Below are positions 16,841-62,251 of a stretch of DNA of 64,000 nucleotides, in pieces. The DNA is from Yuukianura sp. NJ FZ-2021 (Eukaryota). A program made the position numbers and the translations under genes. The stretch is from contig CM102287.1 in the NCBI GenBank assembly GCA_046563655.1, positions 62,001-126,000 of the forward strand, given 5' to 3'. The notes below the pieces were generated by a model. That model saw only the letters and a list, made by a program, of their open reading frames with translations, had not been told where the DNA came from and made no database searches. The first letter of the stretch is position 1, and each line of letters starts with the position of its first letter.

Positions 16841-16859
16841 TTTGATTGCTGGAAAGCGA

Positions 16860-16899: not shown

Positions 16900-16905
16900 T
16901 ACACA

Positions 16906-23613: not shown

Positions 23614-23726
23614 CTTTAGAAATAGTGAAAATAAAATAGTTAGTAAAAACATAACCTAACATTTGGTTCTAACCTTTATAAATAGTTAAATACTTTAAAA
23701 TGCTAAAATCGTTCTCGGGCATTTGA

Positions 23727-24508
23727 TAAGTAGCTTCCGCTACTTAATCGCCACGTTTTCACTAGCAAAACGCTTTACGAACAGATGTGCGAACTACAAT
23801 AACAATAGAACATCGTAAAGTAGCTTCCGCTACTTAACAACAACAACCTCGTTTTTGTTGAAATACATGCCTGATGGACAGACGGAGAATCAAGACAATT
23901 AAGCAGCTTCAGCTACTTTATAACCAGTCCTGTGTTGGTTAGTAAAAAGTTAATTAAAAGAACACTTAAATGCTTTATGGACAGATGGACAGACAGACAG
24001 TTATGCCTTGAAGTAGCTTCCGCTACTTTATAACTACGTTCTGTATTGTTTAGTAAAACGTTAATTCAAATAACGCTTAAATGCTTTACGGACAGACGGA
24101 CAGACAGACAGTTAGGTCGTAAAGTAGCTTCCGCTACTTTATAACTACGTTCTGTATTGTTTAGTAAAAAGTTAATTCAAATAACGCTTAAATGCTTTAC
24201 GGACAGACGGACAGACAGACAGTTAGGTCTTAAAGTAGCTTCCGCTACTTTATAACTACGTTCTGTATTGTTTAGTAAAACGTTAATTCAAATAACGCTT
24301 AAATGCTTTACGGACAGACGGACAGACAGACAGTTAGGTCTTAAAGTAGCTTCCGCTACTTTATAACTACGTTCTGTATTGTTCAGTAAAACGTTAATTC
24401 AAATAACGCTTAAATGCTTTACGGACAGACGGACAGACAGACAGTTAGGTCTTAAAGTAGCTTCCGCTACTTTATAACTACGTTCTGTATTGTTTAGTAA
24501 AACGTTAA
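23727..24508. repeat. 111-bp tandem array with an AAGTAGC-TTCC-GCTACTT hairpin and GACA/GACG microsatellite in each unit
   Basis: Hairpin starts at 24011, 24122, 24233, 24344 and 24455; degenerate copies at ~23728, 23818 and 23901. Confidence 0.92.
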
Positions 24509-31996: not shown

Positions 31997-34900
31997 TTAC
32001 TGTCGTGTGCGTTGACCTCTACTCATTTCCTGGTTGTAAGTTCCTCCTTTGCGTTGATCCTGATTGTATCCTCCTCGGCCTTCGTAACCTCCTGACCGCT
32101 GCTCTCCGCGGTTGTAGCCTTGACCTCCACCGCGGGATTGGCGGTTCTTCCAGTCGGGGCGGTTGAAACGTTGGCCACCTTTTCCTCCCTGGCCCATCAT
32201 TCCTCCCGGGCCACTCTGGATCTTGGTCTCTAAGCTACGGTCACTGGTTTCACGGAGGATGTTAACCTATATCAAAAAGAATTACATCGATAAGCACAAT
32301 GTTCAGTTATATATGTTTAGAATCTTCATTATAATCAAAATACAAAATACAAACTCACCTTGTCCGAGAGTTGGAGCAGCATGGACTGGAGACGTGTTGG
32401 TTCCGTACGATGGAGAACAATGGACTTGGTGGGTTCGTCCATGGAAGCCTGAAATACAAAAAGCAGTTCATGTCAACAGAATCCTCATAAAAACATAAAG
32501 TAACCCAGTTTCAAAAAATTTGAATTTACCATTAGCTCTTGGTTGATGATCATTTTGGCGACGATTGAGTGTACCTGAGCATCGTCCAGTTCATACATGG
32601 AACCCAAACGCGGGAGGCTGATGGAGTCGTAAACATGGGAGTAGGTAAATAAATAAGTGCGAAGACACTCCTCCTTGATCTTCCGTTGAACCATTTGCTT
32701 CACTCCAATTCTAAAAATGAAAATAAAACTTGTCATCGCTCAATTCTCAAAATCCAAAACAGTGGCTTTCTTTCATGATTTAAAAACACAAGGAAATGGA
32801 ACTTACAGTTTCTCGCCTACAGTATGCTCATAAATTCCAAAGTAGTTCCAGACTTTCTTTTCCATTTTCTCGTTGACAAGTGAGTTGAAACATTTCCTCC
32901 AATCTCCTTTCTTCATCGCTCGTGCGGCTGCTACAACATGCTCTCTCATAGATTCCGGAGGACCAGTCAAGCTCTGCTTCTCCATTGTACGCAATTGATG
33001 ATAGAATGTTTTAGAAATTGGGCGTCTCTTGGCATCAAATTCATGTTCAGCAATATAGGGTACTTCCAGAAGCATCGCTGACACCAAGTAGACACACTCA
33101 ATAACATCCAGGTTCAATTGCATATGAAAAGGGACTTGGCGACTGCGTTCAACTTTCTCTTGCTCGGCTGTTCGATCATGACGATGTTGCGGCATGAGTC
33201 CCTGAGCCAGCAGTTCTTTGACTCTGGCGCTCATGAGTAAATCGGCAAGACAGTTATGGGAATCTTGAATGGACTCATGGCGGAAGGCACAAATTCCCAG
33301 TTGAACCATGGCGCGATTGTACATGATCTGAAACCAAAACATTAAAATTTCAAATTGCCCAACACAGTTCTATCCGTCTCCCACTGTACGTTTGCTAACG
33401 TTTGCCTCACCTGAGTTTGTGGATCTGAGTGATGGATTACTTCCTGAAGGTGAGACATGAGCAGCAAATCTCGTGCCTCAAACCAATTATCATGTAGTGC
33501 ATGATGGTAGATGTGACAGAGAATGGCACGGGTACGCAAGCGGTCAGTGGTGTCCTTAGCATAGATGTATGCTGCCAAGCGATGCATGGTGTCCACGCTT
33601 GTTTCTCCTTTATATTCACCCTAAGAAATCAAAAAATACAAGATACAGGTCTGATCACATCTTCACACGAAGAGTTTTTTTTAAGCTAAGTTTTAAATTT
33701 TATAAATCGGGTATCGTTGTGGTCACTCTGAAGTAGCAGAAAAAAGTATTTCAAACGAAACTCTGGGATCTGAATGACCTTGCCTTTCTTTACGCTCACA
33801 ATTCTTATGCTAACTCTCTGAAAGAGAAACCATATTTCCTTGAGCGCAATTTCAACTTCTAGTAAGTTCACGAGTTCAACACTAACTAACCAACATAAAA
33901 AAAATCATTTCATTTCACATGTTAGATTTGTTGAACTTACCCGCTTCTTCTTCAGCACACGGGCGTCAAACTTGTAGTAAATGTGCTCAATCTTCTTGAA
34001 GTAAGCCCTGCACATAAGTCCACGGTCGTTTACGGATGCTGTTGATTCCAAATAGGCAATGAGGCTTTCCAACATGTCGCAGATTTTTCGTTCATCTTGA
34101 ACTCGTTCCATGTATTCAAACGAATGCGAGTCCAACTCCTTCAGAACTTTGAGGAACTCCTCGTCCAAGCGTTCGAAAACAGTCAAAATGCATCCTCTGA
34201 CTTTGAACGGAGCTTTCTCCAACTCTTCTCCATCTTCAGGGATGTTTTCTTCAATCTGGAAAAATAAAGGAACGGTGAAAATTTCAGATCAGAAACATTT
34301 AGGAACATCAGAAACATTTTACTAACCTTGATAGAATCCTTGTGCTCTTTGGCCAAGTTTAACATCTCAGTAGTTTTGTTAAGTAGGCGCAACCAGTACT
34401 GGACCTTCTGTACTTCGTGAATTTTCATGCTGTAATCAAACAGGGCTGCCACAATACAAAATGAAATCTTCAGCTGAAGTGCTGGTCCTAGTTTATGTTG
34501 AGTCGCAATGGATTCCAGCTCAACCAAGAGGTCAATCTGCTCACGCCGATCAGTACCCTGCAGGTCAAAAGTCAAAGTAAGAATTCAAGATGAAATATGG
34601 ATATGGAAAGTGTTACTGATCTGTTCCTGTTTGTAAGAGTATTTCCATACCTTCTTTCCACGAACAGCAGTGATTTCATTAAGTTTCTTGATGACAACCG
34701 GTGTTGTGATCTCTTGGTCTTTTTGAAACATCACAGGACGCTCAGCAATCGCTCCGCGGTTGACAACCTCCCATTCTGGCCCATCTTCTTCCTCTTCATC
34801 TTTGCGCGGAGCCTTCTGAACAACCTTTCTTGGTTTCTTCTCTTCCTTCTTATCCTTTTTAGTTTCAGTTTTTCCGGGTTTCTTCAAAAACTTTTCACGA

Positions 34901-35813
34901 ATGGAGGCATACTGAGTTTCGTCATCTTCCGAACTGGAGGATTCGGATCCACTGGACGCCCAGTAAGAATCGTCTGAGTCGTCATCCCCATCGTCCTGGA
35001 CAAGAAAGTTATTAAATTACGTTCCTATTGAAAACGTCTAGTAATCTCAGCCTTCTTACCTTCACTTTCGCCGGCTTCTTTGTCTTAGATTTCACTTCAG
35101 GTTCATCTTCACTCTCGCTGGATACGTCTGGTTCAACTTCTTTTTCTTCTTCAAAGTCATCTTCCTCCAGTAGTTCCGGATTCTCACGGAATTTAGCAAG
35201 AGCTTCCTCGTAGTCCTTGTTATATTTTCGAAGCTTCTGGCGCAGAGTACCCAGACTCTTAGCCTTGTCCTTTGGCATCTTTGCATTGTTTTTCTTGTTC
35301 TCCCATTGTTGGTCTACGTAAACTTGAAGCTGGGCGAGAGTACGCAAGATAAAAGTTGGCGTAACCCCCTTCTCTTCCTTGGCAATCACAGGTAGTGCCT
35401 TCTGATGAGCTTTTACCAGATCTTCAAAACCTATAGACCATTCAAAAAAATTATTAAGCGTGCTAAGTTAAGTAATCTGCTGCACTAAAGAAACAAAGGC
35501 TTACAGTCAAGTAAATTGGGAACGTCGTTGATCTTCCGGTAGTTCCGTATCTTTTTGACAATTCCCATGATTTCTTCATATCGCTTCTCCTTAGCAGACC
35601 GGACAATTCGCTTTCCACTTTCTTCTTCTTCATCACTCAACTGCCAAACCCAAATAATTAGAATACATTTAGATTGTCTTAAGGCTAGACAGAGCTTCTT
35701 ACATCATCGTATGCTGTGGTTATAGCCGGCGCCTTCTGGATCTGGGGTTCCTCATCTGATGAAGATTCCGATTCAGAATCAGATCCCCTCGCATAAAAAC
35801 GAGAATGGCTCAT
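31997..35813 (-). CDS. eIF3c: Eukaryotic translation initiation factor 3 subunit C, multi-exon host gene
   Basis: [74 protein letters not shown]...[21 protein letters not shown]-domain C-terminus; many GT-AG introns. Confidence 0.96.
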
Positions 35814-43583: not shown

Positions 43584-44220
43584 CTAAAGTGAGCTTTCAT
43601 GTGTAGTGAAAGCCTGCATTTGAAGAGCAGCTTCGCCCCTCTGGAGTTGGTCACTAAGGGGCCTTGGTCGTCGACGGCGCCTCACGATACGAGTGACCAT
43701 ATAGGCTGCAATGGCCAGGAGCAAGCCCACTTAATAACAGATTTATTAAATTAGAATTCCGATACAATATTCATAATTTACGAGTTATAGCTTACCGGTA
43801 ATGATAGTCAAGACAATGTTCAATTCCGTTGCAGCTTGAATTGAAGGTTCAGGGACATCCGGGGTCAGCGTGGCCGGTGGGTCCGTCACTGGTGGCTCCG
43901 TGGTTGGTGGTTCCGTCGTTGGTAGTTCCGTCGTTGGTGGTTCCGTCGTTGGTGGCTCAGTGGTCGTCGTCGTCGGGATATTACGACAAGCTTCCCAGTT
44001 GGGAGGGTTTACATTAAAGGTGTATCCCCTTGCAGTTCCTTCCAATCCACAAAATGTCCTCTCCTGTCCAGTCCGATTAAATTCGAAGAACGCACATCCC
44101 ATCATGACACATTGGACGCACCTCCATAATGCATGACAAGCGGCTGAGAAAAAAAATAGAAATCAAGATTTAAATTCAAATTGACTAAAGGTTAAAAAGT
44201 TTTTGTAAAAACTTACGCAT
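43584..44220 (-). CDS. Small single-pass membrane protein: Cys-containing head, (EPPTT)n mucin-like stalk, TM, poly-Arg; 2 introns
   Basis: Spliced reading MPACHALWRCVQC...PTTEPPTTE...IVLTIIT|VGLLLAIAAYMVTRIVRRRRRP. Confidence 0.7.
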
Positions 44221-44451
44221 GATTGTTTGATTCTTTTGTTGAGCGCTGTTGGAGACTGGAAGCTAAACTGACAATGTTTGCAGAGATCTGTTTGTGAGAA
44301 GTTCAGTAGAGCTAAACTTTTGAAAGCTATTGATGATTTCGCAATTGATCTTTTGGAACTTTTAAGACACTCGAATTACAAAGACATAAAATCATGAGCG
44401 TCTAGACATTCTTTAAAGATGAGTTTATTTGTAGCTCCCAATTCTAAAAGT

Positions 44452-47400
44452 CTAATTATTTTTCAAATCATAATCAACTATAGTGTCAATACGCTTGTCT
44501 CCAAAGGGAAGGGAAATTGTGTTTGACACAAAAAATCTTGATGCGTTGATGCTGGAGGTGAGGGATGAGCGGTTACTTGTGACAACTAACATTTGGTCTT
44601 GTAAAATTTTCACCGTAGAAATTTTTACTTTCTTCAAAGCCTCTCCATGCTCAACTACGCGCTTAAAATCAGCGTGCCTCAGATCCTTGGCCTCTGTTTT
44701 CGGAATTCCGCCCGCTTTCAGAATGTTGGATTGTCCATGTGCTGAATCAATTTCCATGGAATATTGGGAACAGGAAGTAGAGTAAAATTCTTTGATTCCT
44801 TCAGCTTGAATCTTCAAGAGTCCAGGTATTCCTGCCCGAGAAGCATCATAGAGTTCGGATGACGGCAGTAGATTAGAAAAGTCGAAGCGATTCGAAAGTC
44901 GTTTCAGACCAGCCACGTATTCGGCTCTGCTGCAGTGGATTTCAGCAACTATGCTGTCAGTATGAGTCATCACATGATGGCACCTGTCCCCAAACTCACG
45001 TTTTAGTCCGTCATAGTAGTGTGAGTAGAGCATAATTTTTGCATTTGAAAGTATTGCAAGTCCAATCATGCGCAGATTGTAATCGGTGATTTCTCCTTTT
45101 GAAAAGTCAAAAAGCGCAGTGTCTTCGTCCAAAATCTCGAACGACTTGAAAGTTGCTTTCGCAAGTTCTGCTTTCGCTTCCACCGAAGATCTGATGGTCT
45201 TTGAACGTACGTAATCTGCATTGTTTTTCAGCATCTGCCCATAAAGCGAGTTGTTTAAAAGCTTCCGAAGTTGTTTTTGAAGAGGAAACTTTGCTTGGTT
45301 TCTTGCTATAACATTGCTAGCTGCAAAATTTGCAAAAATCGGAGACTCCCGAAATCGAACTACTGAATAGTACTTTGTTTTACTTTTGTACTTTTGCGCC
45401 ATGGTCAATCATGAATTTGAGGTACTTTCCGTAGTAGACTTGTCGTATTTTTTTGTAGAGAGTCAGAAGCACTCGCTCTTGTTCAATGTTTGTTTTTTCT
45501 CCCAAACTCTCCCGCTGGAATGGAGAAAGCTCTTGAGCAGAAACCTTGAGTCTCTGTTGCGGGAAGGGAAAGTCTGAAAGGAACTCTTTCACTGCTTCAC
45601 TTTGATATTCAAGGTCGACTTCAAAGAGGTAACCCCAGCCTTCGTCAAAATCTGGTTTGTTGAAATCAAACTTCATGATCTCTTCTGCTCTCAATTTTTT
45701 GTTGTCTCCGCACGGTAAATTACCCAAGAAGCACTTGCTGTAGCAGGAGTTAATGCCCGCATATAAAATTATTTTTTGTGGAAGGGTATGGTCATAGTTG
45801 GACAGCTCCTCATTGTTGGCAATAGACTTCAACTTTGTAACTTGAATCACAGGGCCAATAATTCCTCGTGTAATTAGTTTTGAAATTTCTTCGTCCGTGA
45901 CGGCTTGAATTACACACTTTTCCATTAGGAATGCGGCTTCTCTTGAAAATGAAGAAATGCTCCAAAAGGAAGCCAGATCCAAATGAAACTCTTTCCAATA
46001 TTCGTTTCGAATCGCTACGAAAACGTCTGCCGTTAGAGCAGCGACACTGTTAAGTTTGTGCCGAACTATGGCTTCCAAGGAGAGTTGTTTCCAAGAGTCA
46101 GGAAGTTGGAATTTACTCGAACCTTCTAGACTCACGAACGGCACGGATTGGTTTTCGAAAAAATTATCAACCGATGAAAATTCGGGGAGAATGTCGTCTG
46201 CGGCACTTAGTGTAGCGTCGGGAGAAAGTTGTTGGCCAAAAATTTGTTGAAAGATTGGGAATCCAATGCCTGACATCTTCAGCTCCTGTACAAGTTCTGA
46301 GAGATTAGAGTCTGGACGAAAATTTTGAAAATCCACAAATTTGACCCCAAAGTAAAGGTCATACTTTTGTTTACAAATGGTTTTTCTCAAGTCCATGCCT
46401 ATTGTATTGCCTTCCTTTCTACGAATTGGCGTGGCAATTCCATGTTCATCTTTTACGCATTTTAGCAAAAGATTAAACTCATTCTTTTCACAAAATGCAA
46501 TCGCTGTAATACGGTTCTTTGGTTTGATTTCCAAGTTGCAGTTTGTGCAACAGGTTTGCATCTTCTCTCCTGTGAAATGGTTATGGTGGTAAGCTTTAAG
46601 CACGGAATCGTCGTTAAATTGCTTTCCACAAATTTCGCAATGTGTGGCTTGTAGAAAAAGCCTTTCCTGTTCTTCTGTCATCGGAAGCATCTTGTTTGTA
46701 AATTTAATTTCGTCTAGCTTCATCTTGGCCATTTCCATTGCAGTTTTAAAGAAAATATCCACACAATCTCTTCCAATGTAAGAGTGGCGGTCTACGTGGC
46801 CTGTTTCACATACACTCAGTAGACTGAATCCAACTGGAACCTTTTCTGTAACACTGATACATTCTTGTCCAATGGTCATCGGAGTTTGTACAGAAATGTA
46901 GAAAAATTTGTAGAAAAAAATGTAAGGAGCTTTTAGGAGGGCATCAAACTTTCGAAATTTCACAATGTCATTCGTAGGAGCTTTTACTTTTACAGAGTTT
47001 TCACCACACGTATGGTTTAAGGAAGACCAAGTCCTAGAATCAAAACGTTTTTGACAAACGGGACAAAACTGATGCCTGAAATGACCATGCTTTCCGAGTG
47101 CCGAAATGTCCCGAATGCAAACATAGTGATGTTCTTCTCGTTCTGGGTGCTTGATAAGGAGGAGATTGACGTGATATGCCCTCTCAGTTTGAGGTGCCCT
47201 CCATAGAACAATTTCAGATCCCTGGTTTCCGTACACGGTTATGCTGAGGTCTGAGAATTTCTCTTCTACCAAGTCAATGTCCAAAAGAGAAACGTCAGGG
47301 CGAGGGAGAAAGCTCAAATCCATTCTCTCCAAGAAAGGTTCATAGCTTGCCGTTTTCTCCAAAATTGCTCTCTCAACTTTTGACTTTTGGTGATCCTTGA

Positions 47401-48316
47401 GCCCAAGGCAGTGACGCTTCATTGTTCCCAACTCCAAAATTTCATCTTCGTATAGTGCACATAGTACGCTCAATTGAAAGCAGTTGGAATTGGTATTTAT
47501 CGACAGCAGTCCGCGCCTGCGAGCCAATTCCTTTGGAATCGGAATGTAGCCCCGCCCCCGAACAACTGGATTCCACTGACCAATACCAATGTGGAGAGAA
47601 CGTAGCCGCAGAATCTGCCAATTGCTTCCGTTTTCTAGGTATAAGTTGAGGGCGTTGATGATGTATACACAAGAGTTTGTAACCACCCTTGAAATGAAGT
47701 CTGGATGAGAGAGGGGCATGAAGGGTGCTCCGATGGCGTCTCCGAGGTGAATGACATTGTGTGTGACCTCAATCATGTCAGCAATTAAAGTAAAGTTGAC
47801 TTTGACTCCGCTGAACTGCCCAATCACTGACTTCAGCAGCTTCCTGATGGGAAAGTCGAGGTTTTCAAAAACCGAGAGTACTTGACATTCGGTGGGTGGC
47901 TCAACGGGTGCAGAAAACAACTTCAGAGTCCCCTTCAGAGCATGCCGGATTTCTTTAAAAGGACGAATGTCCACCGTAGCGAGGTCATTGTTCGCTGTAC
48001 GGCCCATGCCTCTCTGAGGACAGGTTGGACGGTGAAGACTAGCCTCATCAAAGTACCCTCCACAAGAATTACAGCTATGTACCTGCATCAAAAGTGAAAC
48101 TTTCACATCTTTCCGCATGCCAGTACTAAGAGTAATGTCTTACAGTCTCCACATGGATGGCCATGGCCTTGTAGGTCGTGCATTTGAAAGTGCAGTGCAA
48201 CGTAGCACTTTGATAACCGCAACTAAACTACAAATAAAATTTTTTGTGAAACAACAATACTAAGATGACTTAGAATTTTTTTTTACCTCAGCTGCCCGTT
48301 TATTTGGAAAACTCAT
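44452..48316 (-). CDS. Divergent, catalytically degenerate pPolB-like protein; introns 48228-48286 and 48083-48143; one frameshift near 45385
   Basis: Collinear with Polinton pPolB (NGSNW, YIPIP, NCF..SVL, GIIG, GYLFEVDLEY, KLLNNSLYG, KAGGI, SLPFGD), but motif A reads YAGINSCY and motif C reads MTHTDS. Confidence 0.85.
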
Positions 48317-48524
48317 TTTATTCAAACACTAGTGCTTTAAAAAAAACGAAACTGAAAAGTTTGCAATTTTCTAAATAACAATTTTCTGGCTCAAACTTCG
48401 GACTGACGGGGGGATCGACGGAGGGCGACGTTAAATACGCTGCCGAATGTCCCGCGGGATTGGCTACCATGGCACTGACCTCCCAAACTCCACCCCAAGA
48501 CGTTTGCGACGGCGGCGGCAAAAG

Positions 48525-49059
48525 TCACGCAGGACAAGGCTGTGGATGAATAAAACAATTAATGTATATAGGCGACCAAACTATAAGGTGTAGCGTCATA
48601 CCCAGAATAGCTTGTAATACTGGAAGTTGGGAGGCGGGTTCGTATTTTTGTTGCTTCTTGCAGCCGGTCATTGCTCTCAATAAATTCGAAATGTCTTTTA
48701 GCGCCGTCCCATTGCTGATATTATCAGCAAACAACGTTCCATACACGATTCCATCCGTATCTTGCTTGTGCGAATCGCAATTGGCCGTGACATTAGTTGC
48801 GCCCATTATGAGTGTTCCCGGGAGGTTCCGGGTCAAGTCATTTGTGCAAAAAAAGTTTTGAATCGAATTGAAATGCCATCCTTTGATAAATACATGACCG
48901 CCAGAGATGCAGTTCCTACAGCGTTCTTGGAGAGTTTTTTGCTCTCCTGCTTCCAAAAAGAAAAGAATCACAAAAAATGACCCTGGAGAAGGAAATTGGT
49001 TACTTGCCTGATGACGCTGAGATTAGTAAACACAACACGAGGAAACTACAGAGAGCCAT
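48525..49059 (-). CDS. Putative secreted Cys-containing protein with hydrophobic C-terminus; probable GC-AG intron
   Basis: Signal-like MALCSFLVLCLLISASS; CAG|GCAAGT donor joined in frame to ...GCAG|GAGAG of the 48525-48971 ORF. Confidence 0.55.
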
Positions 49060-50307: not shown

Positions 50308-51735
50308 TTAAAAGAAGTTAAAAATGTCGTCAGGGTATGGCTTGTTCGGCTGACCATGGGGGTTTGTGTTGTTGGTGGCTGGCCAGCGGGGTTGATTGTC
50401 CGAGAGTCGTTGGACTGTTTCCTGGAGACCTTTGACCTGGGTTTGAAGTGTTTGGACCTGATGTTCCAGTGCAGAGATGCGAGCTCGGGAATCATCCTGG
50501 GTCCTCTGATAAGGGGTGACATGGTTCCGATTTCTTTCTCGGTATTGAGAATGTCCTGGCCAGCGATGTCCCTGGTGGTTACTGGGCTTCCTCGACATCA
50601 GTTCATTGTGTTCTGATTCTGCTTCCTTGCTGAGTTCCTCTAATGATGTCCATGTAATGATTGATTGGGCAGACAGATTGGCGTAAATGGGTTCCCCTGG
50701 CCGACGTGACAGATCGTGATCCAACATGCGGGTTACTGTTTCCATTATTTTTGCTTTGTCAAATTTGGCTCCGGGCGGTATTACAAGTTCATCCACCTTC
50801 CACTGAAACTGTTTACGTAATTTGTCATTGTTCTCGAGGCCACAATTTTCATAGAATTCCTCAAAGTTCCGCAGCGAGAGGTCGAACTGTTGTGCTAGGA
50901 AGTTGATGACTTCATAAAGCAATTCTTCATGTTGGGAACGGATAGTGATGTGTTGCCGGAATTTCGGAGTTGGAATTGGCAGTACCAACGTTTCGTTAGC
51001 GTCCTGAATCAGCTTTCGCAAAATTACTCCGCGAGTAGCCTGGAAGTTTGCTCGGATCTCGCTGGCAACTCCGTTCCATAACTGCATAATGGCAACAACG
51101 TGGTCCTGAAGATTCTTGACATGCGCATGTTCGGTGGGATGATAGCATGCGGAGTTCGGCAACTCGTAGTTGAATGTTTTTCGCAATCTTGTGGCAATGA
51201 ATTTTTGGCAAAGTCCCGAGAAGGTATCCTCAGTCGTGACGCCTGTACGAAAGAGTTTTGCTAAATCCAGAAAGCCAACGGGAAAAATATTCAAGTCTCT
51301 TCTCAGCATGATGGATTGTGATGCGCAGTCGTAGGCCACCTTTGGAATGGTTGGGCTCTCGAGCAATGTTCGAAGCACGAGGATGGATTTGTCGGTTAGA
51401 TGTCGCACGTTGAGAACAAAGCCGGTGATGCATGTTAGAATGAGTATAGTCACGGTTTCTCCCAAATACGTATTCGGATTTTCTCGGCAGCTCACAAAAA
51501 CGAGGTCCTGGGACATGGCTTGACGAATCAACCAAGCGGCTGCTCCATCGTCACTGACAGTGGTGTGTCTCCAGCCAGATTCTTTTTCCGGAGCTCGGAA
51601 CTGAAGTAGTCTCTGTGTCAGCTTTCCCTCATTTACTGCAGCAAGGCGTTCTGCATGGTCGCTCTTTTCGGGAAAATTTTCGGTGACATTCAAGGCTTGT
51701 CGTTTTTCGTAATAGATACTGCTGGATGTCGCCAT
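50308..51735 (-). CDS. DEDDy/RNase D-like 3'-5' exonuclease-fold protein, apparently inactive, with C-terminal coiled coil
   Basis: LRTLLESPTIPKVAYDC....MLRRDLNI..VGFLDLAKL...SGLCQKF....L.K matches the WRN/EXD/Mut-7/Egalitarian family; ExoI region reads VFVSCRE. Confidence 0.75.
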   Translation of the reverse strand: MATSSSIYYEKRQALNVTENFPEKSDHAERLAAVNEGKLTQRLLQFRAPEKESGWRHTTVSDDGAAAWLIRQAMSQDLVFVSCRENPNTYLGETVTILILTCITGFVLNVRHLTDKSILVLRTLLESPTIPKVAYDCASQSIMLRRDLNIFPVGFLDLAKLFRTGVTTEDTFSGLCQKFIATRLRKTFNYELPNSACYHPTEHAHVKNLQDHVVAIMQLWNGVASEIRANFQATRGVILRKLIQDANETLVLPIPTPKFRQHITIRSQHEELLYEVINFLAQQFDLSLRNFEEFYENCGLENNDKLRKQFQWKVDELVIPPGAKFDKAKIMETVTRMLDHDLSRRPGEPIYANLSAQSIITWTSLEELSKEAESEHNELMSRKPSNHQGHRWPGHSQYRERNRNHVTPYQRTQDDSRARISALEHQVQTLQTQVKGLQETVQRLSDNQPRWPATNNTNPHGQPNKPYPDDIFNFF

Positions 51736-51882
51736 TTTTCTTATGGTGAAAATAAATGAGTCAATCAAAAATTAAACATTAATAGTTTTCATTTTAACCC
51801 CATTCTAAAATTACTGACTACCTATGAATCTATGATTAGTCCCTTTTTAATATACATTATAGTTTTCTGGGAAAGAAAGTTA

Positions 51883-52794
51883 TTAATAATCTACCCATCC
51901 TTCACGGTCCTCAGGAGCCGAATCTGCCAGTTTAATAACTCTTTTTATAAGTTCTTTGGGAACTTTTTCTTTAGGAATTCTGCTCAATTGTCCTAATAGA
52001 AAGGCGAAGCCTTTTCGCGGAAAGAACCCATTTAAATCCACGCAAATATTTCCAGGGTACATGTCGGAAAAGTACGGTGGACAATATTGAAACCTTGTTC
52101 CTACGCGCCGTATATCTTCAACATCGAGTTGAATGAAGAAAGAAGCTTTTATCGCGACTTGAATGGGTCTTGTACTCCCGCAATCACTGATCTCTTCTAA
52201 AAGGTCATGAAGGTCTTTCTTAGGACCTGGATTTGCCCACATTTCTAACTTTTGAAATCCGATTCGATCTCGAACCTCCTTTGAAGAAGGGATGATTCGG
52301 ATAAAGCGACTTAAGTCGTCCCGATTCCCTAACATGTTACTAAGACCCTCATTTGCTTGATAGTTAATATGCCATTTGTCATCGTCCTCAGCGTGGTAGT
52401 AAAACCCTAAGGGTTTGTCCTTGATCTCCGGTTTGTAGAATTTTTCACACGTGACCTGCGCAATTGCATCACCTTTTCTTAGGTGGAAAGATTTCCTGCC
52501 ATGATTAAAAATCGTCATTTTGCAAATGCCTGATATTGTACCCCCTTCCATGACCTCTGGGGCAACGGTTATTCCATGGCTAAGCGTATGTCTGTAAATA
52601 GAAGTTATTCTTCCGAAAAGTCCTAACGGAATACGCAAGGCGATTCCGGTGGAAACAACACAACGGTCTCCTGGCGAAATGTCATAATCCGCGGAAGTGT
52701 AAATAGTAAGGCCAGCCTCATGGGCTTCTCCCCAGTGAGGTGCCTTGGCGTCTGGAGAGTGTAAAGTGAACTCTATGGGCTCAAAGTAAGCCAT
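51883..52794 (-). CDS. Degenerate trimeric dUTPase domain fused to an unknown ~180-aa domain
   Basis: DAKAP.....AGL.IY.......PGDRCVVSTGIALRIP.G.FGRI...FNHG...F.L.KGD.IAQ; catalytic motifs altered. Confidence 0.85.
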   Translation of the reverse strand: MAYFEPIEFTLHSPDAKAPHWGEAHEAGLTIYTSADYDISPGDRCVVSTGIALRIPLGLFGRITSIYRHTLSHGITVAPEVMEGGTISGICKMTIFNHGRKSFHLRKGDAIAQVTCEKFYKPEIKDKPLGFYYHAEDDDKWHINYQANEGLSNMLGNRDDLSRFIRIIPSSKEVRDRIGFQKLEMWANPGPKKDLHDLLEEISDCGSTRPIQVAIKASFFIQLDVEDIRRVGTRFQYCPPYFSDMYPGNICVDLNGFFPRKGFAFLLGQLSRIPKEKVPKELIKRVIKLADSAPEDREGWVDY

Positions 52795-52826
52795 TTTGAA
52801 AGGAAAATGAAATGAACGAAATGAAA

Positions 52827-53630
52827 CTAGTTTTCCTTATCTGACTCCAAGTAGTCGTCACAAGTCTCGGCGTAAGCGTCGCCTGCGATACAAATTTCGT
52901 CGATGAGCTGGTCGTCTGTACTCAACCCTCTGCGTTCCTGAGTCTCCTTTGTCTTCTCTCGGCGTTGGACTTGGCGTTCGGACAGTGTGCTCCAGTAGAT
53001 GATTTTCTCTGTTTCGTAAAGACTGAAGAAGTACTTTACTTCTTCCCTCCGTCCTCCGTTGCAGTGAAGGATGTCGGCCAAGTCTCGGAAGCAGTATGGT
53101 CGGTAGGGTCGTCGAGTTACAGCTAATATCAGACTGTCGGTCCGGAAATCGGTTAGTGGAGCTCCTGGCTGACGAGTGATGTGTATGGTGGTGAAGTGAG
53201 TTAGTTCTAGCTTTTCCTGTAAGCCAAGTCGCAGGAACTCATCTGTCTTGATCCCAAGATCAAGTATTCCTTCACAGTGTCGGACGAATGACACGAGAGT
53301 TAGCGGGAATCGATCGATTCTAATCTGGGCGAATCTGTAGATTAGCTCGTGTCTGCAGTGAGTCAGCTGGTACCTATAAGTAGAGCGTGGATCTTCCCAA
53401 ATCCAGATTTCTAGCTTGTTGATCAGTGGTTTCCAGGCGAGTTTAGTAGTCTTGACTAAACTGTCTATCAGTTCCTTTAGTTCGGGAAAACAGTCTTTGA
53501 GGAGACTCAGCTCGATTACACTCCTCGAGGCGAGAAATCTCGCTCTCTCGTACCGCTGATTTGGTTGGTTTCTTTCTCGAACTGCGTCTATGAATCCAGC
53601 TGGCAGGTTGTGAAGTCCGTTCACTGACAT
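52827..53630 (-). CDS. Retroelement accessory ORF, unknown function
   Basis: 267-aa intact ORF, co-oriented, preceded by a TTTTCAG acceptor. Confidence 0.75.
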   Translation of the reverse strand: MSVNGLHNLPAGFIDAVRERNQPNQRYERARFLASRSVIELSLLKDCFPELKELIDSLVKTTKLAWKPLINKLEIWIWEDPRSTYRYQLTHCRHELIYRFAQIRIDRFPLTLVSFVRHCEGILDLGIKTDEFLRLGLQEKLELTHFTTIHITRQPGAPLTDFRTDSLILAVTRRPYRPYCFRDLADILHCNGGRREEVKYFFSLYETEKIIYWSTLSERQVQRREKTKETQERRGLSTDDQLIDEICIAGDAYAETCDDYLESDKEN

Positions 53631-53769
53631 GAGTTTTTAGAATTCTGAATTCTGAAAATGACGTGTTTTTAGTCTATTGTTTTACAAAGTTCTATTTATT
53701 TTACTATTCTAGCCTGCTACTCCTGAGTACTATCTACTAATCTTCAAAATAGATGCCCTGCCTGTATGC

Positions 53770-54428: not shown

Positions 54429-56585
54429 TTACAATTCCTCCTGTTCTTCCGAAGCGCTGTCACTGTCGGAAGTAACTCTTTCCTCTTCTTCCTCCTGAAT
54501 GGTGTCCATCGTCTGGACGACCTGGATTTTGAGTGGTGAATGGAATGAGGTTCGTCCTCCTTTCTCAAATTTGTCGAGGTCAGTTCCATCTGCCCTGATC
54601 TCACCGCTTGGCCAATTTCTGCCGCTCTTGCGTCGCATATAGATCGCGTATGCGTATCCAAACATAAAAAATACCACGAAGACCAAAATTAGTAGTAGAG
54701 TGATTCCTAAGTTCCAGGCATGGTGTTCGTGGACTTCGGCAGTTGCTTGGGCCTGGCCGAACTGTCCTCCTAACATAGGAAAACCTAGCATGTAACCTCC
54801 ATGCCGGCTGATTTCACGATAGAAGAGAAAAGCTAACACTAGGCTCATCAGAACGTTCCATATTATTAGTGCAGTGTTGCTTGATGGGGCCATTTTGGCT
54901 ACCAATTGGGGAACAATCAGTGTCTTTAGCTGCGTGACCTCCGTGAGGTTTAGTTTTGGAGAGTCTAACTCCCATGTCTCGTTGAAGACGGACTCGATGC
55001 TAGGAAAAATGGTGGATTCCTTTGAGTCTCGAGATTCTGTTGCCTTTAGTAATAAATCGACCTTTGACATCATCGCTGGTATGACTATATTAACCTTAGG
55101 GTAGGTGATAGGTCCTGTTGGACAAGGATAAGGTGGTCGGACTGGCATTCTTCCTGGGATGACTAGTTGACAATCGCATGGCAACTGTACTTCGATACTT
55201 CCGATACCGTCAGCGGGGACCCTCAATGGATAGATTCGGTCGGCATCTTCTGTTCCACAATGCACGGCCATCCCTTCGGGAGCACCGGTCAGAATGAATG
55301 TATGGTAATCCAACTGTGTTATCGCGAATTCGTTTTGATCTGAGAGACACTCGAACAGACAGACCTGGTTGAGCTCTTGAACGCTAGCTCCTCGCAATAA
55401 CCTTTGTGCGCAAAGGTACCCGGATAACGGATCGGAGTTGAAGTTCGGGATTTTACAGAGTCCTGTGTCCGGTTGACATTGGTGGAGTTGGGTTCCTTGG
55501 ATTGTTACCAGATTATTCTTACTTGTAGCCAGGTAAGTTGGAGCGTGTTGGATGATACATGTGCTTCCCCGGTAGCTGAAGGGAATATTGACCATCTCAT
55601 GTAGTTGCCAATCATCTTCAGTTTTTCTGATTGGAATGCGTAGTTGGAAGATAATTCTCCCTTCAGTAGTTGTGACGCAATCTGCGATCTTCAGCTTGTA
55701 GTATTTCGAGATTTCGGTCTCTGGAACGACAAGGTCGTAACCATCCTTGTTGATGAGCCTCCTGATACTTCTCAAGTCTCTTTGCAGCTTCTTGGGTTGG
55801 ATTGCTAACAAAGGGATTGTCTGGGACCTACAGTGGTCTTGGAGATCTTTGAATCGGATGATCTCGGTGATGGCGTTGATGTGGTTGTAGATTTGAACAA
55901 ATCCTCTTCGTTGGAAGTCCAATTCTTCGAATGCTTCTTCAACGCGTTGTTCCAGCTGCGTTTCAAGAACAGTGACGTTCAGCTGCTCGGCGTACAACGT
56001 ATGGATGTTGTCATGAATACGATTCATGAACCTGGAGATGTTACTTCGAAACAACTCGAAACTATCTTTTACTGTGATTATGTTTTGGTCTGAAGTGACC
56101 ACAGCTCTCTTGATGGATTCCATGAATTGTTGTACCTTCTGAGAATCGACTTGATATTCCTTCAGATCTCGTTTAGAAGCTACGCCACAGCATATGGAGT
56201 AAAGGTCACCAATCCATGTCAACGGGTTGTAGTCGTCTATGCTGAAACGTTTCTGCCGGGTCGTGGTTTTGGATGGACTCATCATTAAGTCCTCGATTAT
56301 CTTTTGCATCACATCGGTGACATGTTCAACATAAGGTCGCATCGCGAGCGGAAACACGCAGTTTTGTCCTGATTGGCAACGTTTGGGGGTTAGGATGCCC
56401 TTTGGTAATTCCGAGAAGTTTGCCATGACATCATAGATCAAGGGGACGCTTGATGAGTACAACTCTACGTTCTTGACCTCTCGGATTAAGGCTCCAGTGG
56501 TCACTCGTACTTGTTTTGGTATTATTTCGTATGCAGCGACAGGGGTGAGTAGAAGAAGAGTTATTGAGGCGTAGATCGCCGCCAT
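54429..56585 (-). CDS. env: Envelope glycoprotein, baculovirus F / errantivirus-like class I fusion protein
   Basis: Signal peptide, furin site RQKR followed by FSID..PLTWIG.L...C.GVA, heptad region, Cys-rich ectodomain, C-terminal TM segments. Confidence 0.85.
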   Translation of the reverse strand: MAAIYASITLLLLTPVAAYEIIPKQVRVTTGALIREVKNVELYSSSVPLIYDVMANFSELPKGILTPKRCQSGQNCVFPLAMRPYVEHVTDVMQKIIEDLMMSPSKTTTRQKRFSIDDYNPLTWIGDLYSICCGVASKRDLKEYQVDSQKVQQFMESIKRAVVTSDQNIITVKDSFELFRSNISRFMNRIHDNIHTLYAEQLNVTVLETQLEQRVEEAFEELDFQRRGFVQIYNHINAITEIIRFKDLQDHCRSQTIPLLAIQPKKLQRDLRSIRRLINKDGYDLVVPETEISKYYKLKIADCVTTTEGRIIFQLRIPIRKTEDDWQLHEMVNIPFSYRGSTCIIQHAPTYLATSKNNLVTIQGTQLHQCQPDTGLCKIPNFNSDPLSGYLCAQRLLRGASVQELNQVCLFECLSDQNEFAITQLDYHTFILTGAPEGMAVHCGTEDADRIYPLRVPADGIGSIEVQLPCDCQLVIPGRMPVRPPYPCPTGPITYPKVNIVIPAMMSKVDLLLKATESRDSKESTIFPSIESVFNETWELDSPKLNLTEVTQLKTLIVPQLVAKMAPSSNTALIIWNVLMSLVLAFLFYREISRHGGYMLGFPMLGGQFGQAQATAEVHEHHAWNLGITLLLILVFVVFFMFGYAYAIYMRRKSGRNWPSGEIRADGTDLDKFEKGGRTSFHSPLKIQVVQTMDTIQEEEEERVTSDSDSASEEQEEL

Positions 56586-56708
56586 TTTTCTTTTCTAGGG
56601 GAATGAAAAGTTCCTAAATATTCTGAAGCTGTCCTACCACTTAACTACCTTAACTACCTAATTTCCCGCCTCCGTAATTCTATATGAGTAGTTAATTAGT
56701 GGTGCGTT

Positions 56709-59700
56709 TTATGACAAGAACCTCGCAGGTTTCCTGACGACTCTTCCTGAGCGAGTTACTATCTCGGGTTCTTTTGCCTTTTCGTCGGCCACGTTGGCCT
56801 TACTAATTTCTTCATCTTCTGAGGAAATGTCCTCATCTGTTGATACTTGACCTACGTCACTGTCGACTTCGGCGTCGACCTCGGCGTTATCGTTGACGGG
56901 TTCCCTAATCTCTCTATCCGCGACCGGAAGGTCAAAAAAAATTTCGGGTGTGGGCTTATCGTGTCCTTCCCCAACTTGATCTGCTGCTACTCCCGAAGCA
57001 GCCGTCGTTACGTACGACATGTCGGATTCATGAAACGCTTTCATGTTTTCAATGTGGACTCGAGTGAGCTTAGAGTCGGGATCTGCGTCCCGCAACCGAC
57101 AATAATAAGAGAGAGAGGACTTCCTCCCAATCACGATGTAGGGGCCTTTAAACCGCATGGCGAGTTTGCGGCTTATCCCTGGTTTTGTCTTATGTACTTT
57201 AAGGAGTACTAGGTCACCGACCTTAAATTCGAAGGGTTGGCGACCCGGGTCGAACAACCTCGCCTGCCTTGCCTGGGCTTTCCGAAGTCCAGCTTGTGCA
57301 GCTTTCCGTGCTGCTTCCATGCGTTGGATACGCGTCGGAATTTCAACGGCGTCCTTGACGGTGTCCAAAGCGACGTCCATAGGATGTAGTGGATTCCGTC
57401 CATGGAGAATGTAGTAACTGCTAAGTCCTGAGCTGTCCTTATGGACGGCTGTATTTAGGCTGTAAACAGCAGACCCTAAATATTTGTCCCAATCACGCTG
57501 GGTGCTGGAGACATAATTAGTAAGTACCTCCTCGAGGCTTCGGTTAGTTCGCTCGACTAAACCGTTGGTCCTGCTGTGATACGGAGTAGAGTACAGATTG
57601 GTGATACCGATCAATTTGTTAAACTCTTTAAAGAATGAGGATTGAAAAGTACTAGCATTGTCAGAAAGAAGAGTTTTGAAAACTCCGTGGGTTTGAATTA
57701 TCTCAGTCAGAAATGAGATCATCTCTTTGGTGGTATTTTCGGGTATTGCTTTAGCAAAAATGTATCTCGATACGAATTCAACTAGGACAACAATATAGCG
57801 ATTCCCTCGCTTGGTTCTGTTTAGCGGGCCTATGACATCAATACTGCACTTGTCAAACAGAGCAAGAGAGCTGATGTCAATCGGCGTCAAGAGTCCGTAA
57901 GGCTTCACATTTTTAGACTTTCTTAGTTGACACGTCGGACAATGTCTAATGTATGACGTTACACGTTTTTCCATTTTGAAAAAGAAAATACTTTGTCGAA
58001 TTCTGGCGATAGTCCTGGCGATACCAAGGTGTCCAGCCAAGGTATCATCATGGAAACGTGGAATGGCACAGTCTACCAAGTGAGCTGGTATGACTGGCAA
58101 ATATTGTTTCGTCTGTTTGCAAATGGATTTTAAAAGATCCTCGGAATAGTCAAAAGATGTACAGTATTTAGTTTTCCCTGCTTGGAGAGATTGAATGATA
58201 GTCTCTAATTTCCTGTCTTTCATTTGCTCCTGAGCCAGATTCTCCGTATAGTCTACTGGAGTTACTAACTGCATACTATACCATGTAGTTGGAAAATCAT
58301 CGATAAATTTCTTTTCACCTTCTGATTCGGATATAGGAAATCTGCTTAAGCAGTCTGCCTGGACATGGCTTTTACCATTGATGTGTTTAATTTCATAAAC
58401 GACATCCTGAAGTCGCAAGGCCCAACGAGCAAGACGACTGTTTCTAAGATTTTTACATGTTTTTAAATAGCATAGGGCATGATGATCTACGACAATAGTA
58501 ATGCCCTTGAAACCAATAAATTCTCTAAACTTGTCCAGACCCCAAACAACAGCTAGAGCCTCCTGCTCGCTAGTGTTGTAGCGTTCCTCGGCGCCACGAT
58601 ACGTTCGACTGGCGTAAGCTACTACCCGCAGGACGCCATCTGGGTCCCGTTGGTTGAGTACTGCTCCTATACCCTTGTTAGAAGCATCAGTATGAAGTTC
58701 TAAGTCTGCATTCTCGTTGAAGAACGTAAGAATTGGAGCTGAAGTTAGTTTTTCTCGTAGCGTGTCAAATGCTTGTTGTTGTTCTAAATCCCATTTGAAA
58801 GCTGCATTCTTCTTGGTTAAAGAAGTCAGTGGAGCTGCTATAAGACTGTAGTTCAAAATGAATCTCCTATAGTATCCTGCCATTCCTAAGAAAGTTCGGA
58901 TCTCCCCGATGTTGGTAGGAGGAGGCATCTTGGAAATGGCACTAACTTTATTTGGATTAACTGAAACTCCTTCCCCTGAAATGATGTGACCTAGGAGTTC
59001 AATTTTAGTCTGTCCGAAATGACATTTTGGTGGTTGGAGAGTCAAATTATATGTACGAAATTGTTCAAAAACTTTTCTCAGATTGCTCAAATGACTCGGA
59101 AAGTCTTTACTGTAACAACATACATCGTCTAGGTATGCAGTGGCAATGGAATGCAGCAGATTACCCAGTACTGTTTTGAGAAAGGCAGAAAATGCTGCTG
59201 GGGCGTTTGTTAGGCCGAAACCTACAAAGAGATATTCATACGCTCCTGTGTGTGTTACAAAGCTGGTTTTCTCAACGTCATCAGGATGGATGGGTAATTG
59301 AAAGTAACCTGACATCAAATCCATCACGCTAAAATATTTGGCTCCATTGAAAGATGCTAAGAGCTCACTGATGATGGCCATTGGCCATACAACAGTTTTC
59401 GTTAAGAAATTTAGGCGTCTCCAATCAACGCACATTCTAAACTTGTCACTATTTTGTTTTCGTACTAAAGAGACTCCTGCGGACCAAGGTGATTGACTCT
59501 CCCGAATAATGCCTGCGTTTAACAATGTTTCGACTTCCTTTTCTATAATTTTCTTTTCAACTGGGGATTTCTTGTATGGAGGGCAACTTACAGGAAGTGC
59601 ATCTCCAGTGTCAATCCGGAAACTAACATCCTTAGCTTTCCCTAGCTGGTCCAAATTGAAAGCAAAGACATCTCCGTACTCTAAGATGAGTTCTCTCAAT

Positions 59701-60668
59701 TGTTGTCTCTGCCCAGGATCTAATTCTGGATTGATATCGATGGAGTCTATATTTTCCCGAGTTGATTTAAAACGAGCTGCTCGAATTTCTTCTTCCGGTT
59801 GCGAATCTCTAACTATAACTCGGCTAATCCATCCGACATTTACACCTCTGTAAAGTGTCACAGGAACTGGTCTTGGATTATCGTCTGGAATAAGGAATTC
59901 CCCTTCTGGAATATGGGCTAAATGAGGAATGCAAATGCCTAATTTGTCTAATCCTGTTCCATTAGGTTCAAAAGCTAAAGTTCCACTAATCGTATTGACA
60001 GGAGATACTTTCACCTGAGTGGTGGCGAACGGTGGAAGAACTACCTCTTCCACTGTCAAGACTTTAGGTGTGGATGGATGATTCTTTTTGGACAAATTAC
60101 TTTCTTCCACCCTGACTGAATTCAGAATTGTTTTAGTCCCTGTGGAAGGGAAAACGTTAAGACGTTTAGGGTGACACATTCCCTGAAATTGGAATTCCGC
60201 TAAACCGTTGGGATTAAGCAGCCGATACTGCATTAAATTGGCCGCTTGAAAATCTAACCCAATAATAAAATCCACAAAACTTTTATCTATGACAAAGAAA
60301 TCCCAATCAAAGAATTCGTCCTTGGTGCGGGTGAACTGAACCCTAATTCTGGAAGTGCCTAAAATTTTGACATGGCTGTCATTAGCTAATTTTATTTTGA
60401 AAGGTTGGCTTAATTTGTCAAATGTTTCAGCGTTATGTTTTGTAACGATGCTAACAGAAGCTCCGTTGTCAATTAAACAAGTTTTTCGAAAAAGTGTGCC
60501 AGATTCGTTAATAAAAATTGGGGTAATGAAATTTCCTCGGAGTTTGGAATCATTAACATCGAGTTGCATGGAATTGATAGTTGGTTCATTTAACGTTTCA
60601 TTTTGGTAAAAAGGGGGACATGAAAGAATGACGTCAGCTCCCCCTACTGACGTGCAGTGGAGTTTTCC
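56709..60668 (-). CDS. pol: Pol polyprotein (PR, RT, RNase H, integrase), entered by -1 frameshift
   Basis: LIDNGASVS, FRMCVDWRRLN, DLMSGYFQ, FGLTNAP, YLDD, TDAS, H..GHLG..CPTC, DVIGP/SDNA/GLVER, GPY. Confidence 0.97.
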   Translation of the reverse strand, partial: GKLHCTSVGGADVILSCPPFYQNETLNEPTINSMQLDVNDSKLRGNFITPIFINESGTLFRKTCLIDNGASVSIVTKHNAETFDKLSQPFKIKLANDSHVKILGTSRIRVQFTRTKDEFFDWDFFVIDKSFVDFIIGLDFQAANLMQYRLLNPNGLAEFQFQGMCHPKRLNVFPSTGTKTILNSVRVEESNLSKKNHPSTPKVLTVEEVVLPPFATTQVKVSPVNTISGTLAFEPNGTGLDKLGICIPHLAHIPEGEFLIPDDNPRPVPVTLYRGVNVGWISRVIVRDSQPEEEIRAARFKSTRENIDSIDINPELDPGQRQQLRELILEYGDVFAFNLDQLGKAKDVSFRIDTGDALPVSCPPYKKSPVEKKIIEKEVETLLNAGIIRESQSPWSAGVSLVRKQNSDKFRMCVDWRRLNFLTKTVVWPMAIISELLASFNGAKYFSVMDLMSGYFQLPIHPDDVEKTSFVTHTGAYEYLFVGFGLTNAPAAFSAFLKTVLGNLLHSIATAYLDDVCCYSKDFPSHLSNLRKVFEQFRTYNLTLQPPKCHFGQTKIELLGHIISGEGVSVNPNKVSAISKMPPPTNIGEIRTFLGMAGYYRRFILNYSLIAAPLTSLTKKNAAFKWDLEQQQAFDTLREKLTSAPILTFFNENADLELHTDASNKGIGAVLNQRDPDGVLRVVAYASRTYRGAEERYNTSEQEALAVVWGLDKFREFIGFKGITIVVDHHALCYLKTCKNLRNSRLARWALRLQDVVYEIKHINGKSHVQADCLSRFPISESEGEKKFIDDFPTTWYSMQLVTPVDYTENLAQEQMKDRKLETIIQSLQAGKTKYCTSFDYSEDLLKSICKQTKQYLPVIPAHLVDCAIPRFHDDTLAGHLGIARTIARIRQSIFFFKMEKRVTSYIRHCPTCQLRKSKNVKPYGLLTPIDISSLALFDKCSIDVIGPLNRTKRGNRYIVVLVEFVSRYIFAKAIPENTTKEMISFLTEIIQTHGVFKTLLSDNASTFQSSFFKEFNKLIGITNLYSTPYHSRTNGLVERTNRSLEEVLTNYVSSTQRDWDKYLGSAVYSLNTAVHKDSSGLSSYYILHGRNPLHPMDVALDTVKDAVEIPTRIQRMEAARKAAQAGLRKAQARQARLFDPGRQPFEFKVGDLVLLKVHKTKPGISRKLAMRFKGPYIVIGRKSSLSYYCRLRDADPDSKLTRVHIENMKAFHESDMSYVTTAASGVAADQVGEGHDKPTPEIFFDLPVADREIREPVNDNAEVDAEVDSDVGQVSTDEDISSEDEEISKANVADEKAKEPEIVTRSGRVVRKPARFLS

Positions 60669-62161: not shown

Positions 62162-62251
62162 ACCCTTTTGAAACGGGCGTAATACCTTAAGCAAATCATA
62201 TACATACAACTTTAAGTATAGATCCAAAACCAGAAAATAAATTCTTGGATT

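Follow-up and report, generated by a model that had tools for sequence, protein, structure and literature searches.

Polinton/Maverick elements carry a DNA polymerase of family B that is protein-primed (pPolB) and in which, according to the main text of Krupovic et al. (2024, PMC11161782), terminal-protein (TP), vOTU, exonuclease (Exo) and polymerase (Pol) domains follow one another in that order; the first of these (D1) matches the little-finger/PAD domain of family Y polymerases, and the second (D2) matches OTU proteases and has a Cys/His pair. Animal Polinton pPolBs, some with an HNH insert, are also represented by the integrase-linked pPolB1 and pPolB2 genes of nematodes and other hosts (Jeong et al. 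2023, PMC10748475), a survey that was limited to integrase-linked genes and that, in its main text, reports all Exo and Pol motifs as conserved. Here we describe a pPolB gene, termed the candidate below, that is located on the minus strand at 48316-44452 of a 64,000-nt stretch of DNA from Yuukianura sp. NJ FZ-2021 (GCA_046563655.1, CM102287.1, 62,001-126,000 of the forward strand), hereafter the window, to which all coordinates refer. The gene belongs to a clade of full-length pPolBs that has lost its proofreading residues on several occasions, and has in addition lost the catalytic Asp of polymerase motif A. The reading we favour, with a probability of roughly 0.45, is that the candidate is the replication gene of a repeated Polinton-derived unit, in a copy that either was disabled recently or is trans-dependent, and that cannot itself polymerise.

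In domain order, in its TP and OTU fold matches, in its phi29-like body and in having an insert of homing-endonuclease type, the candidate resembles the Polinton pPolBs as presented in the main text of PMC11161782. It differs from them in that all six of the ExoI-III residues are replaced on a retained fold, that the first Asp of motif C and the Lys of the KxY motif are lost, that motif A has a Gly, and that no integrase, capsid, ATPase or protease gene or terminal inverted repeat (TIR) is present nearby in the window. Compared with the genes of PMC10748475, the candidate is not integrase-linked and its clade is without the Exo motifs. The pPolB of mavirus and the pPolB-S1H (Tlr1-like) proteins of polinton-like viruses and transpovirons, as described in the main texts of PMC11161782 and PMC5499653, are likewise Polinton-derived and have likewise given up proofreading while keeping TP, vOTU and palm; in these, however, nothing or no more than a remnant is left of the exonuclease domain and a helicase has been gained, whereas the candidate retains the exonuclease fold. 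No helicase family was found in a Pfam scan of its two open reading frames (ORFs), which overlap in different frames on the minus strand (ORF A, 45380-48139, 919 aa; ORF B, 44452-45408, 318 aa), and the fold matches cover modelled residues 20-919 of ORF A without one. Pol alpha, Pol zeta and the C-terminal half of Pol epsilon, some of which are treated in the main text of PMC5499653, resemble the candidate in having an exonuclease fold without catalytic residues, or inactivated modules, but they are cellular, RNA/DNA-primed and part of fixed complexes whereas the candidate is protein-primed, virus-derived and apparently multi-copy. In that text, a structural role is proposed for inactivated family B modules. 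In the literature consulted, which includes PMC11161782, PMC5499653, PMC10748475 and PMC13215967 (main texts, not the supplements of PMC10748475 and PMC11161782), no clade of full-length Polinton pPolBs with substituted exonuclease residues is described; exonuclease loss in Polinton replicases is documented in the main texts of PMC11161782 and PMC5499653 as loss of the whole domain only, in mavirus and the pPolB-S1H fusions.

The catalytic motifs were compared in a MAFFT alignment that joined the candidate and the canonical pPolB of the window to 74 library proteins. The motif readings previously made from the letters alone, for ExoI, ExoII, ExoIII, motif A and motif C, were each confirmed. 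At the ExoI position, the candidate has FYKFFY (46898-46915, minus strand, as for all features of this gene) where the canonical protein has FYADFE, with Asp replaced by Lys and Glu by Phe; at ExoII, FCEKNEF (46475-46495) stands for HNFSSYD, with Asn replaced by Cys and Asp by Glu; and at ExoIII, HKLNSV (46043-46060) stands for YVRLDV, with Tyr replaced by Lys and Asp by Val. None of the six exonuclease residues is therefore kept (K, F, C, E, K and V instead of D, E, N, D, Y and D). Motif A reads YAGINSCY (45740-45763) rather than YIDANNLY; Gly795 (45755-45757) occupies the place of the catalytic Asp, the Tyr is kept and no acidic residue adjoins the Gly. Motif B (KLLNNSLYGQ, 45235-45264) is intact, motif C (MTHTDS, 44953-44970; canonical YTDT/DS, split by an intron) has His for the first Asp and retains Thr-Asp-Ser, and the KxY position (SQYS, 44758-44769) keeps the Tyr and has Ser for the Lys, a Lys that is also lost in P0004, P0005 and P0152. 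Of the two metal-ligand Asp residues that mark an active family B polymerase, the one in motif A is thus replaced by Gly and the second Asp of motif C is present. To our knowledge, every family B polymerase uses the motif A Asp as a metal ligand, and studies of phi29 and family B mutants are the basis for predicting that a Gly at this site abolishes polymerisation. The claim of the sequence-only reading, a set of remarks made earlier from the letters of this DNA, that polymerase residues had been lost is consequently correct for the motif A Asp and the first Asp of motif C, but does not extend to motif B or to the second Asp of motif C.

How far these losses are shared was assessed in a census of 153 rows (the candidate, the N-terminal ORF of the canonical pPolB and library proteins P0001-P0151), classed by the six exonuclease residues as exo-dead (two or fewer kept), exo-intact (five or more) or unclassified (fragments or intermediate); 25, 108 and 20 rows, respectively, fall into these classes. 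Exo-dead rows that cover the relevant positions have the motif A Asp in 18 of 19 cases, the candidate being the sole exception, the second Asp of motif C in 18/18, its Thr in 17/18, the motif B Lys and Gly each in 19/19, and the vOTU Cys and His in 22/22 and 24/24, respectively. All 106 covered exo-intact rows have the motif A Asp. At the first Asp position of motif C, the exo-dead rows have D (7), E (6), H (2), N (2) or Q (1), and 5 of the 17 covered rows have lost the KxY Lys. In a tree built from the 119 rows that reach 850 aa or more (FastTree, LG, 1118 columns; shorter rows and the canonical N-terminal ORF excluded), 19 exo-dead and 3 exo-intact tips form a single clade with support of 0.994. 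Within the tree, the candidate groups with P0004 and P0005 (support 1.0), and this group has two exo-intact proteins, P0003 and P0025, as its sister (0.916). The intact P0012 pairs as sister with the dead P0047 (0.961), and the exo-dead P0145 lies outside the clade. As intact and dead tips intermix, proofreading residues must, assuming no regain, have been lost at least three times. In the subgroup of the candidate, P0004, P0005, P0007 and P0152, the first Asp of motif C and the KxY Lys have also been lost, and P0007, the nearest relative that covers motif A, has the Asp there.

Domain identities, calculated for 8 exo-dead and 8 exo-intact pairs picked by hand, are lowest in the exo-dead pairs for the ExoII-III region (20-28% in 6 of the 8), a region that in the exo-intact pairs is conserved like the polymerase. 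The TP domain is 25-45% identical in exo-dead pairs versus 12-27% in exo-intact pairs, and the vOTU domain is as conserved, or more so, in the exo-dead pairs. The exonuclease losses are common to uninterrupted relatives of 1,200-1,300 aa and so are old, rather than a product of decay of the candidate. Judged by their residues, the proteins of the clade would be self-priming and self-cleaving polymerases that work without proofreading. The term pseudo-polymerase, used in the sequence-only reading, therefore does not fit the family, as loss of proofreading is clade-wide, the clade keeps its polymerase centre and the motif A Gly occurs in 1 of 19 exo-dead rows. A metagenome scan returned seven loci, one of which (L001) is 55% identical but only 1,075 nt long and without genomic context, four (L002-L004 and L007) have intact polymerase or exonuclease motifs, and two (L005 and L006) are N-terminal pieces that stop short of any motif. 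No relative turned up when viral contigs were scanned with P0009 and P0004, and word-index protein searches gave few matches, at most one per query, with P0152 among them.

These comparisons also bear on the idea that the candidate is, in spite of the motif A Gly, a still-active and error-prone protein-primed polymerase. It is the lone exception to a motif A Asp otherwise present in exo-dead and exo-intact rows alike, the residue it has lost is, as far as we know, a metal ligand throughout family B, and there is no acidic residue beside the Gly that might stand in for it; continued activity is thus very improbable, even though motif B, the Thr-Asp-Ser of motif C, the motif A Tyr and a phi29-like fold have all been kept. 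Activity could be accommodated along the lines raised in the main text of PMC5499653, that changes in catalytic motifs may be compensated elsewhere.

Evidence that the remainder of the protein is a conventional pPolB comes from both sequence and fold. A HMMER search of 1.84 billion representatives gave 2707 matches at E ≤ 1e-3, 1027 at ≤ 1e-10 and 64 at ≤ 1e-30, to Polinton-type protein-primed polymerases. ORF B is 24% identical to the window's canonical pPolB (E 2e-13) and matches Pfam DNA_pol_B_2 with an E of 0.011, a match too weak to reach the cut-off. The ESM Atlas returned generic pPolB clusters only, a sequence search of the PDB only Zn-finger noise, and Foldseek against the PDB no match at E ≤ 0.001 for either of two AlphaFold2 models built from family alignments, one of the N-terminal region (predicted local distance difference test, pLDDT, 85.4) and one of the exonuclease-polymerase region (pLDDT 88.9). 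Comparison of these models by VIA-align recovered TP, vOTU, exonuclease and phi29-like polymerase folds, and the domain order is N-terminal Zn fingers, TP, vOTU fold, exonuclease fold with an HNH-like insert, and polymerase. The TP (D1) domain (47564-47938; model residues 49-173) has a little-finger/PAD-like fold and matches the corresponding domains of family Y polymerases with Z values of 8.7-7.0, the best being pol eta (2r8j_A, Z 8.7, root mean square deviation (rmsd) 2.9, 107 residues aligned). Between its helix 2 and strand 4 is Ser172 (47624-47626), which is invariant (49/49 rows) and is a candidate for the linking residue of the domain. The vOTU-like cysteine protease fold (47093-47539; residues 182-330) matches OTU entries with Z values of 7.4-6.1, middling by the tool's own note, led by the Kupe virus OTU (6oar_A, Z 7.4, rmsd 3.4, 106 aligned) and followed by those of Crimean-Congo haemorrhagic fever virus (3phu_B, Z 7.3) and OTUD1 (4bop_B, Z 7.1); among the matches listed, many OTU entries fall on this same stretch, which makes the assignment credible in spite of the middling values. 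The Cys (Cys220, 47480-47482) is kept in 49/49 rows and the His (His338, 47126-47128) in 48/48 rows of the 49-row alignment, and by fold and residues the domain is a putative protease.

A C2H2-type finger is located between vOTU and Exo (47006-47065; Pfam B129_C2H2-zf, E 1.8e-4, below the cut-off), with residues C359, C362, H376 and C378 that are invariant or nearly so in the family. The HNH-like Zn insert in the exonuclease fold (46535-46639) has a nearly invariant CxxC...HHNH...CxxCN motif and matches Pfam Endonuclease_7 with an E of 9e-4 (19.5 bits versus a cut-off of 23.6). Ahead of the TP domain there is a QRGMG sequence (Q-x-G-x-G, 48002-48016) that could serve as a cleavage site; of 42 aligned rows, 19 have Q.G.G and 8 another G.G. 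The Cys/His pair, the HNH-like insert and the QRGMG sequence had all been pointed out before, and each was found again here, the pair within a fold that matches OTU proteases and the insert under the Pfam cut-off. The exonuclease-polymerase model aligns with phi29 polymerase over 321 residues (Z 14.1, rmsd 3.6) and with the exonuclease domains of other family B polymerases at Z 10-12, and the proofreading fold has therefore been retained although its centre is gone.

The gene model has two predicted introns and, once spliced, about 1,244 codons with a single break, in line with the earlier count of some 1,250 codons and one frameshift. Exon 1 (48287-48316) starts with an ATG at 48316 and has 10 codons, and is followed by intron 1 (48228-48286; 59 nt, GT..AG), exon 2 (48144-48227; 84 nt, 28 codons, with a C2H2-like finger), intron 2 (48083-48143; 61 nt, GTAAG..CAG) and exon 3 (44455-48082), the main coding body, which is in two frames in the window owing to the break and ends at a stop codon at 44452-44454. 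A putative AATAAA-type signal is present ~30 nt past the stop (44410-44430). The introns are supported by the spliced peptide, which aligns across the join of exons 2 and 3 with N-termini that are uninterrupted, those of P0009 (score 97), P0016 (79), P0150 (77) and P0003 (68); the exon 1/2 junction is weakly homologous to P0150, P0020 and P0016. In size, intron 2 resembles the introns of the window's canonical Polinton pPolB, and the exon ORFs of the eIF3c gene in the window are likewise closely spaced. Introns as a mark of domestication were considered and rejected, as the canonical Polinton pPolB of the window has at least three.

The break, the only one in the gene, is in an A-rich repeated stretch at about 45373-45391. 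Contigs (Logan) were available from four DNA runs, X1-X3 from one sample of organism A and X4 from organism B in another study. Around 45370-45400, the region that the sequence-only reading had singled out for a check of raw reads, ten letters of the window at 45379 are missing at full depth from the contigs of all four runs, and because these letters are absent the contigs read through the site and the frame continues. P0152, a relative at 46% identity, also has no interruption there. The frame break is private to the window's sequence. An 8-base direct repeat was rejected as the sole cause of the frame shift; the repeat alone is insufficient, and the reads differ from the window by ten letters.

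Selection was estimated from read differences, using the best-supported 40 of 310, in which alleles and paralogues are mixed so that the ratio of non-synonymous to synonymous change (omega) is a rough one. The long exon holds 39 of these 40 differences, 27 synonymous and 12 non-synonymous, which with 785 synonymous and 2827 non-synonymous sites gives an omega of ~0.12 (p 3e-10 against neutrality, 6e-6 against a model with one neutral branch). Differences seen in X4 number 13 synonymous and 6 non-synonymous, and omega between organisms A and B is ~0.12-0.13. Omega is thus not near 1, and the frameshift is absent from 4/4 read sets. Until recently, then, purifying selection was acting on the coding sequence, given that its close copies in both organisms have no break and that most of the changes between them and the window are synonymous. 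It is accordingly improbable that the candidate is no more than a pseudogene in decay, a dead piece left over from an old Polinton and so far free of stop codons. The frame break in the window, the unique motif A Gly, the solitary position of the gene without partners and the deep contig of X4, with a one-base gap and a departure inside the gene, can be cited for this, but the break is missing from all four runs, the excess of synonymous changes rejects neutrality under both models, the exonuclease losses are old, and frames of 919 and 318 codons are still open; a 919-codon open frame at 40% GC is far beyond chance, with an estimated stop frequency of ~0.06 per codon. The candidate is not a neutral relic.

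The same contigs provide information on copy number. The four runs contain 176, 176, 84 and 16 contig pieces, respectively, spread over the ≥99%, 95-99% and 90-95% identity classes, and many contigs depart from the window inside the gene and so have loose ends. This suggests several diverged copies, a small family. In X4, the depth is 77-87 over 44300-45755 and 46886-48563, ~9 in the window-like middle and 12.9 for the contig beyond 48563, and the deep 3′ contig extends at least 525 nt past 44300; in organism B, therefore, a unit of at least 4.8 kb is probably present in several copies. At 45755, beside the motif A codon, contigs of both X3 and X4 come to an end, which marks a branch in the reads. 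Directly downstream of the candidate's stop there is a Thr/Pro-rich, mucin-like ORF with 15-nt repeats (43785-44162, minus strand), in an area covered by the deep 3′-end contig of organism B, and this ORF may share the candidate's repeated unit.

The selection and copy-number data have to be weighed together in considering a domesticated pseudo-polymerase, a gene kept by the host that neither polymerises nor proofreads and that acts as a TP/vOTU/DNA-binding decoy against Polinton replication or as a deubiquitinase. Purifying selection, seen both among close copies and in the comparison of organisms A and B, the frame that is intact in all read sets, the flanks that are both common to organism B, the loss of the motif A Asp, the first Asp of motif C and the KxY Lys while the TP Ser, vOTU Cys/His and HNH motif were kept, the relatively higher conservation of TP and vOTU in exo-dead pairs and the absence of linked Polinton genes or TIRs in the window are all in line with such a role, for which the active-looking canonical Polinton in the same window would be a target. 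The other covered exo-dead relatives, however, keep both catalytic Asp residues (18/19 and 18/18), so that the family looks catalytic, the Asp is present in the nearest relative that covers motif A (P0007), the canonical Polinton gene has introns too, and the window's own haplotype is broken. A single domesticated gene is further weakened by the diverged copies and, in organism B, by the repeated unit suggested by the reads, to which the diverged contig pieces, the loose ends and the depth steps in X4 all point. Domestication is on this evidence possible but doubtful. In its strictest form, that an animal genome holds a catalytically dead Polinton replicase kept by selection, with TP Ser, vOTU dyad and HNH motif intact, as a decoy or dominant negative or as a deubiquitinase, the proposal is unlikely. 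What stands of the earlier suggestion of a pseudo-polymerase with a non-replicative role are the dead proofreading residues, the kept vOTU Cys/His and the purifying selection (omega ~0.12).

We favour instead the reading in which the candidate is a disabled or trans-dependent copy. The clade would have lost its proofreading centre several times while the metal-binding Asp pair, the motif B Lys/Gly, the TP Ser and the vOTU Cys/His stayed fixed, and its proteins would serve a repeated, presumably mobile, Polinton-derived unit. The subgroup of the candidate would have gone further, with loss of the first Asp of motif C and of the KxY Lys, and the candidate alone would then have gained the motif A Gly, after which, to judge from the phi29 and family B mutants, it probably cannot polymerise. 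The Gly could be a recent disabling change.

Several observations weigh against this reading. A random recent change that strikes exactly the catalytic Asp is a priori unlikely, and the branch of the candidate is not longer than those of P0004 and P0005 (1.2 versus about 1.2). The case for a repeated unit consists of relative contig depths and loose ends, and the flanks common to organism B could mean an orthologous host locus. The selection counts come from the best 40 of 310 differences, with alleles and paralogues mixed; there is no difference at 45756 among those best 40, and a motif A Gly shared by sister copies would defeat the notion of one disabled copy. The deep contig of X4 shows a gap of one base at 46935 and diverges from the window at 45758, beside the motif A codon, and the deep form may therefore itself be disrupted. 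No paralogue of the Polinton capsid, ATPase, protease or integrase was found in 28-64 kb of the window, and no TIR or unit boundary was found around the gene within the window. The sequence-only reading had likewise noted that no capsid or integrase is adjacent, and for 28-64 kb this is so, the only integrase there being that of a Ty3/gypsy element.

The window otherwise reads as an ordinary animal chromosome, with eIF3c, matrixin, a Ty3/gypsy element, a Mutator-like transposase and a canonical Polinton all present. The canonical Polinton (about 10800-24500) has a pPolB (19156-23655, minus strand; ORFs 20764-23655 and 19734-20558) with at least three GT..AG introns, counted at about 55-60 nt each, two of which flank the motif A exon and one of which lies inside motif C; once spliced, its motifs are all intact. 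The element further includes an ORF for an A32/FtsK-like ATPase (18102-19028) and one that is rve-like (17188-17829), and a 111-bp tandem array is located at 23901-24508. The eIF3c host gene (32488-35467, minus strand) has at least seven exon ORFs at close spacing. At 98-10700, a 508-bp satellite is present in 21 head-to-tail copies, mostly 95-100% alike, with a constant GC content of 0.37 and a GC skew of 0.17; it was missed by Tandem Repeats Finder because its period exceeds 500. A 672-aa ORF (25797-27815, minus strand) encodes a Mutator-like transposase (E 3e-70) fused to a YqaJ-type recombinase/exonuclease domain (E 1.8e-12). Between the candidate and the Ty3/gypsy element are three successive minus-strand ORFs (50308-53636) of 269, 317 and 487 aa, of which the 317-aa ORF has a dUTPase domain (E 1.3e-12) and the other two have no family match. 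The Ty3/gypsy element (54429-62251) includes an env-like ORF of 721 aa with a C-terminal hydrophobic stretch.

Polinton replicases have been treated as complete, proofreading polymerases, and a full-length clade with a dead exonuclease on a retained fold departs from that. The clade suggests that there are animal virus-like elements whose replication lacks proofreading, in parallel to Pol alpha and Pol zeta, and so suggests a testable source of high mutation rates. Surveys restricted to integrase-linked pPolBs would miss genes such as the candidate. If the motif A Gly and the selection hold across copies, a viral replicase would have been turned to non-catalytic use, and the reading as a dead replicase, if true, would make this the first domesticated Polinton polymerase, within a clade with three or more losses of proofreading.

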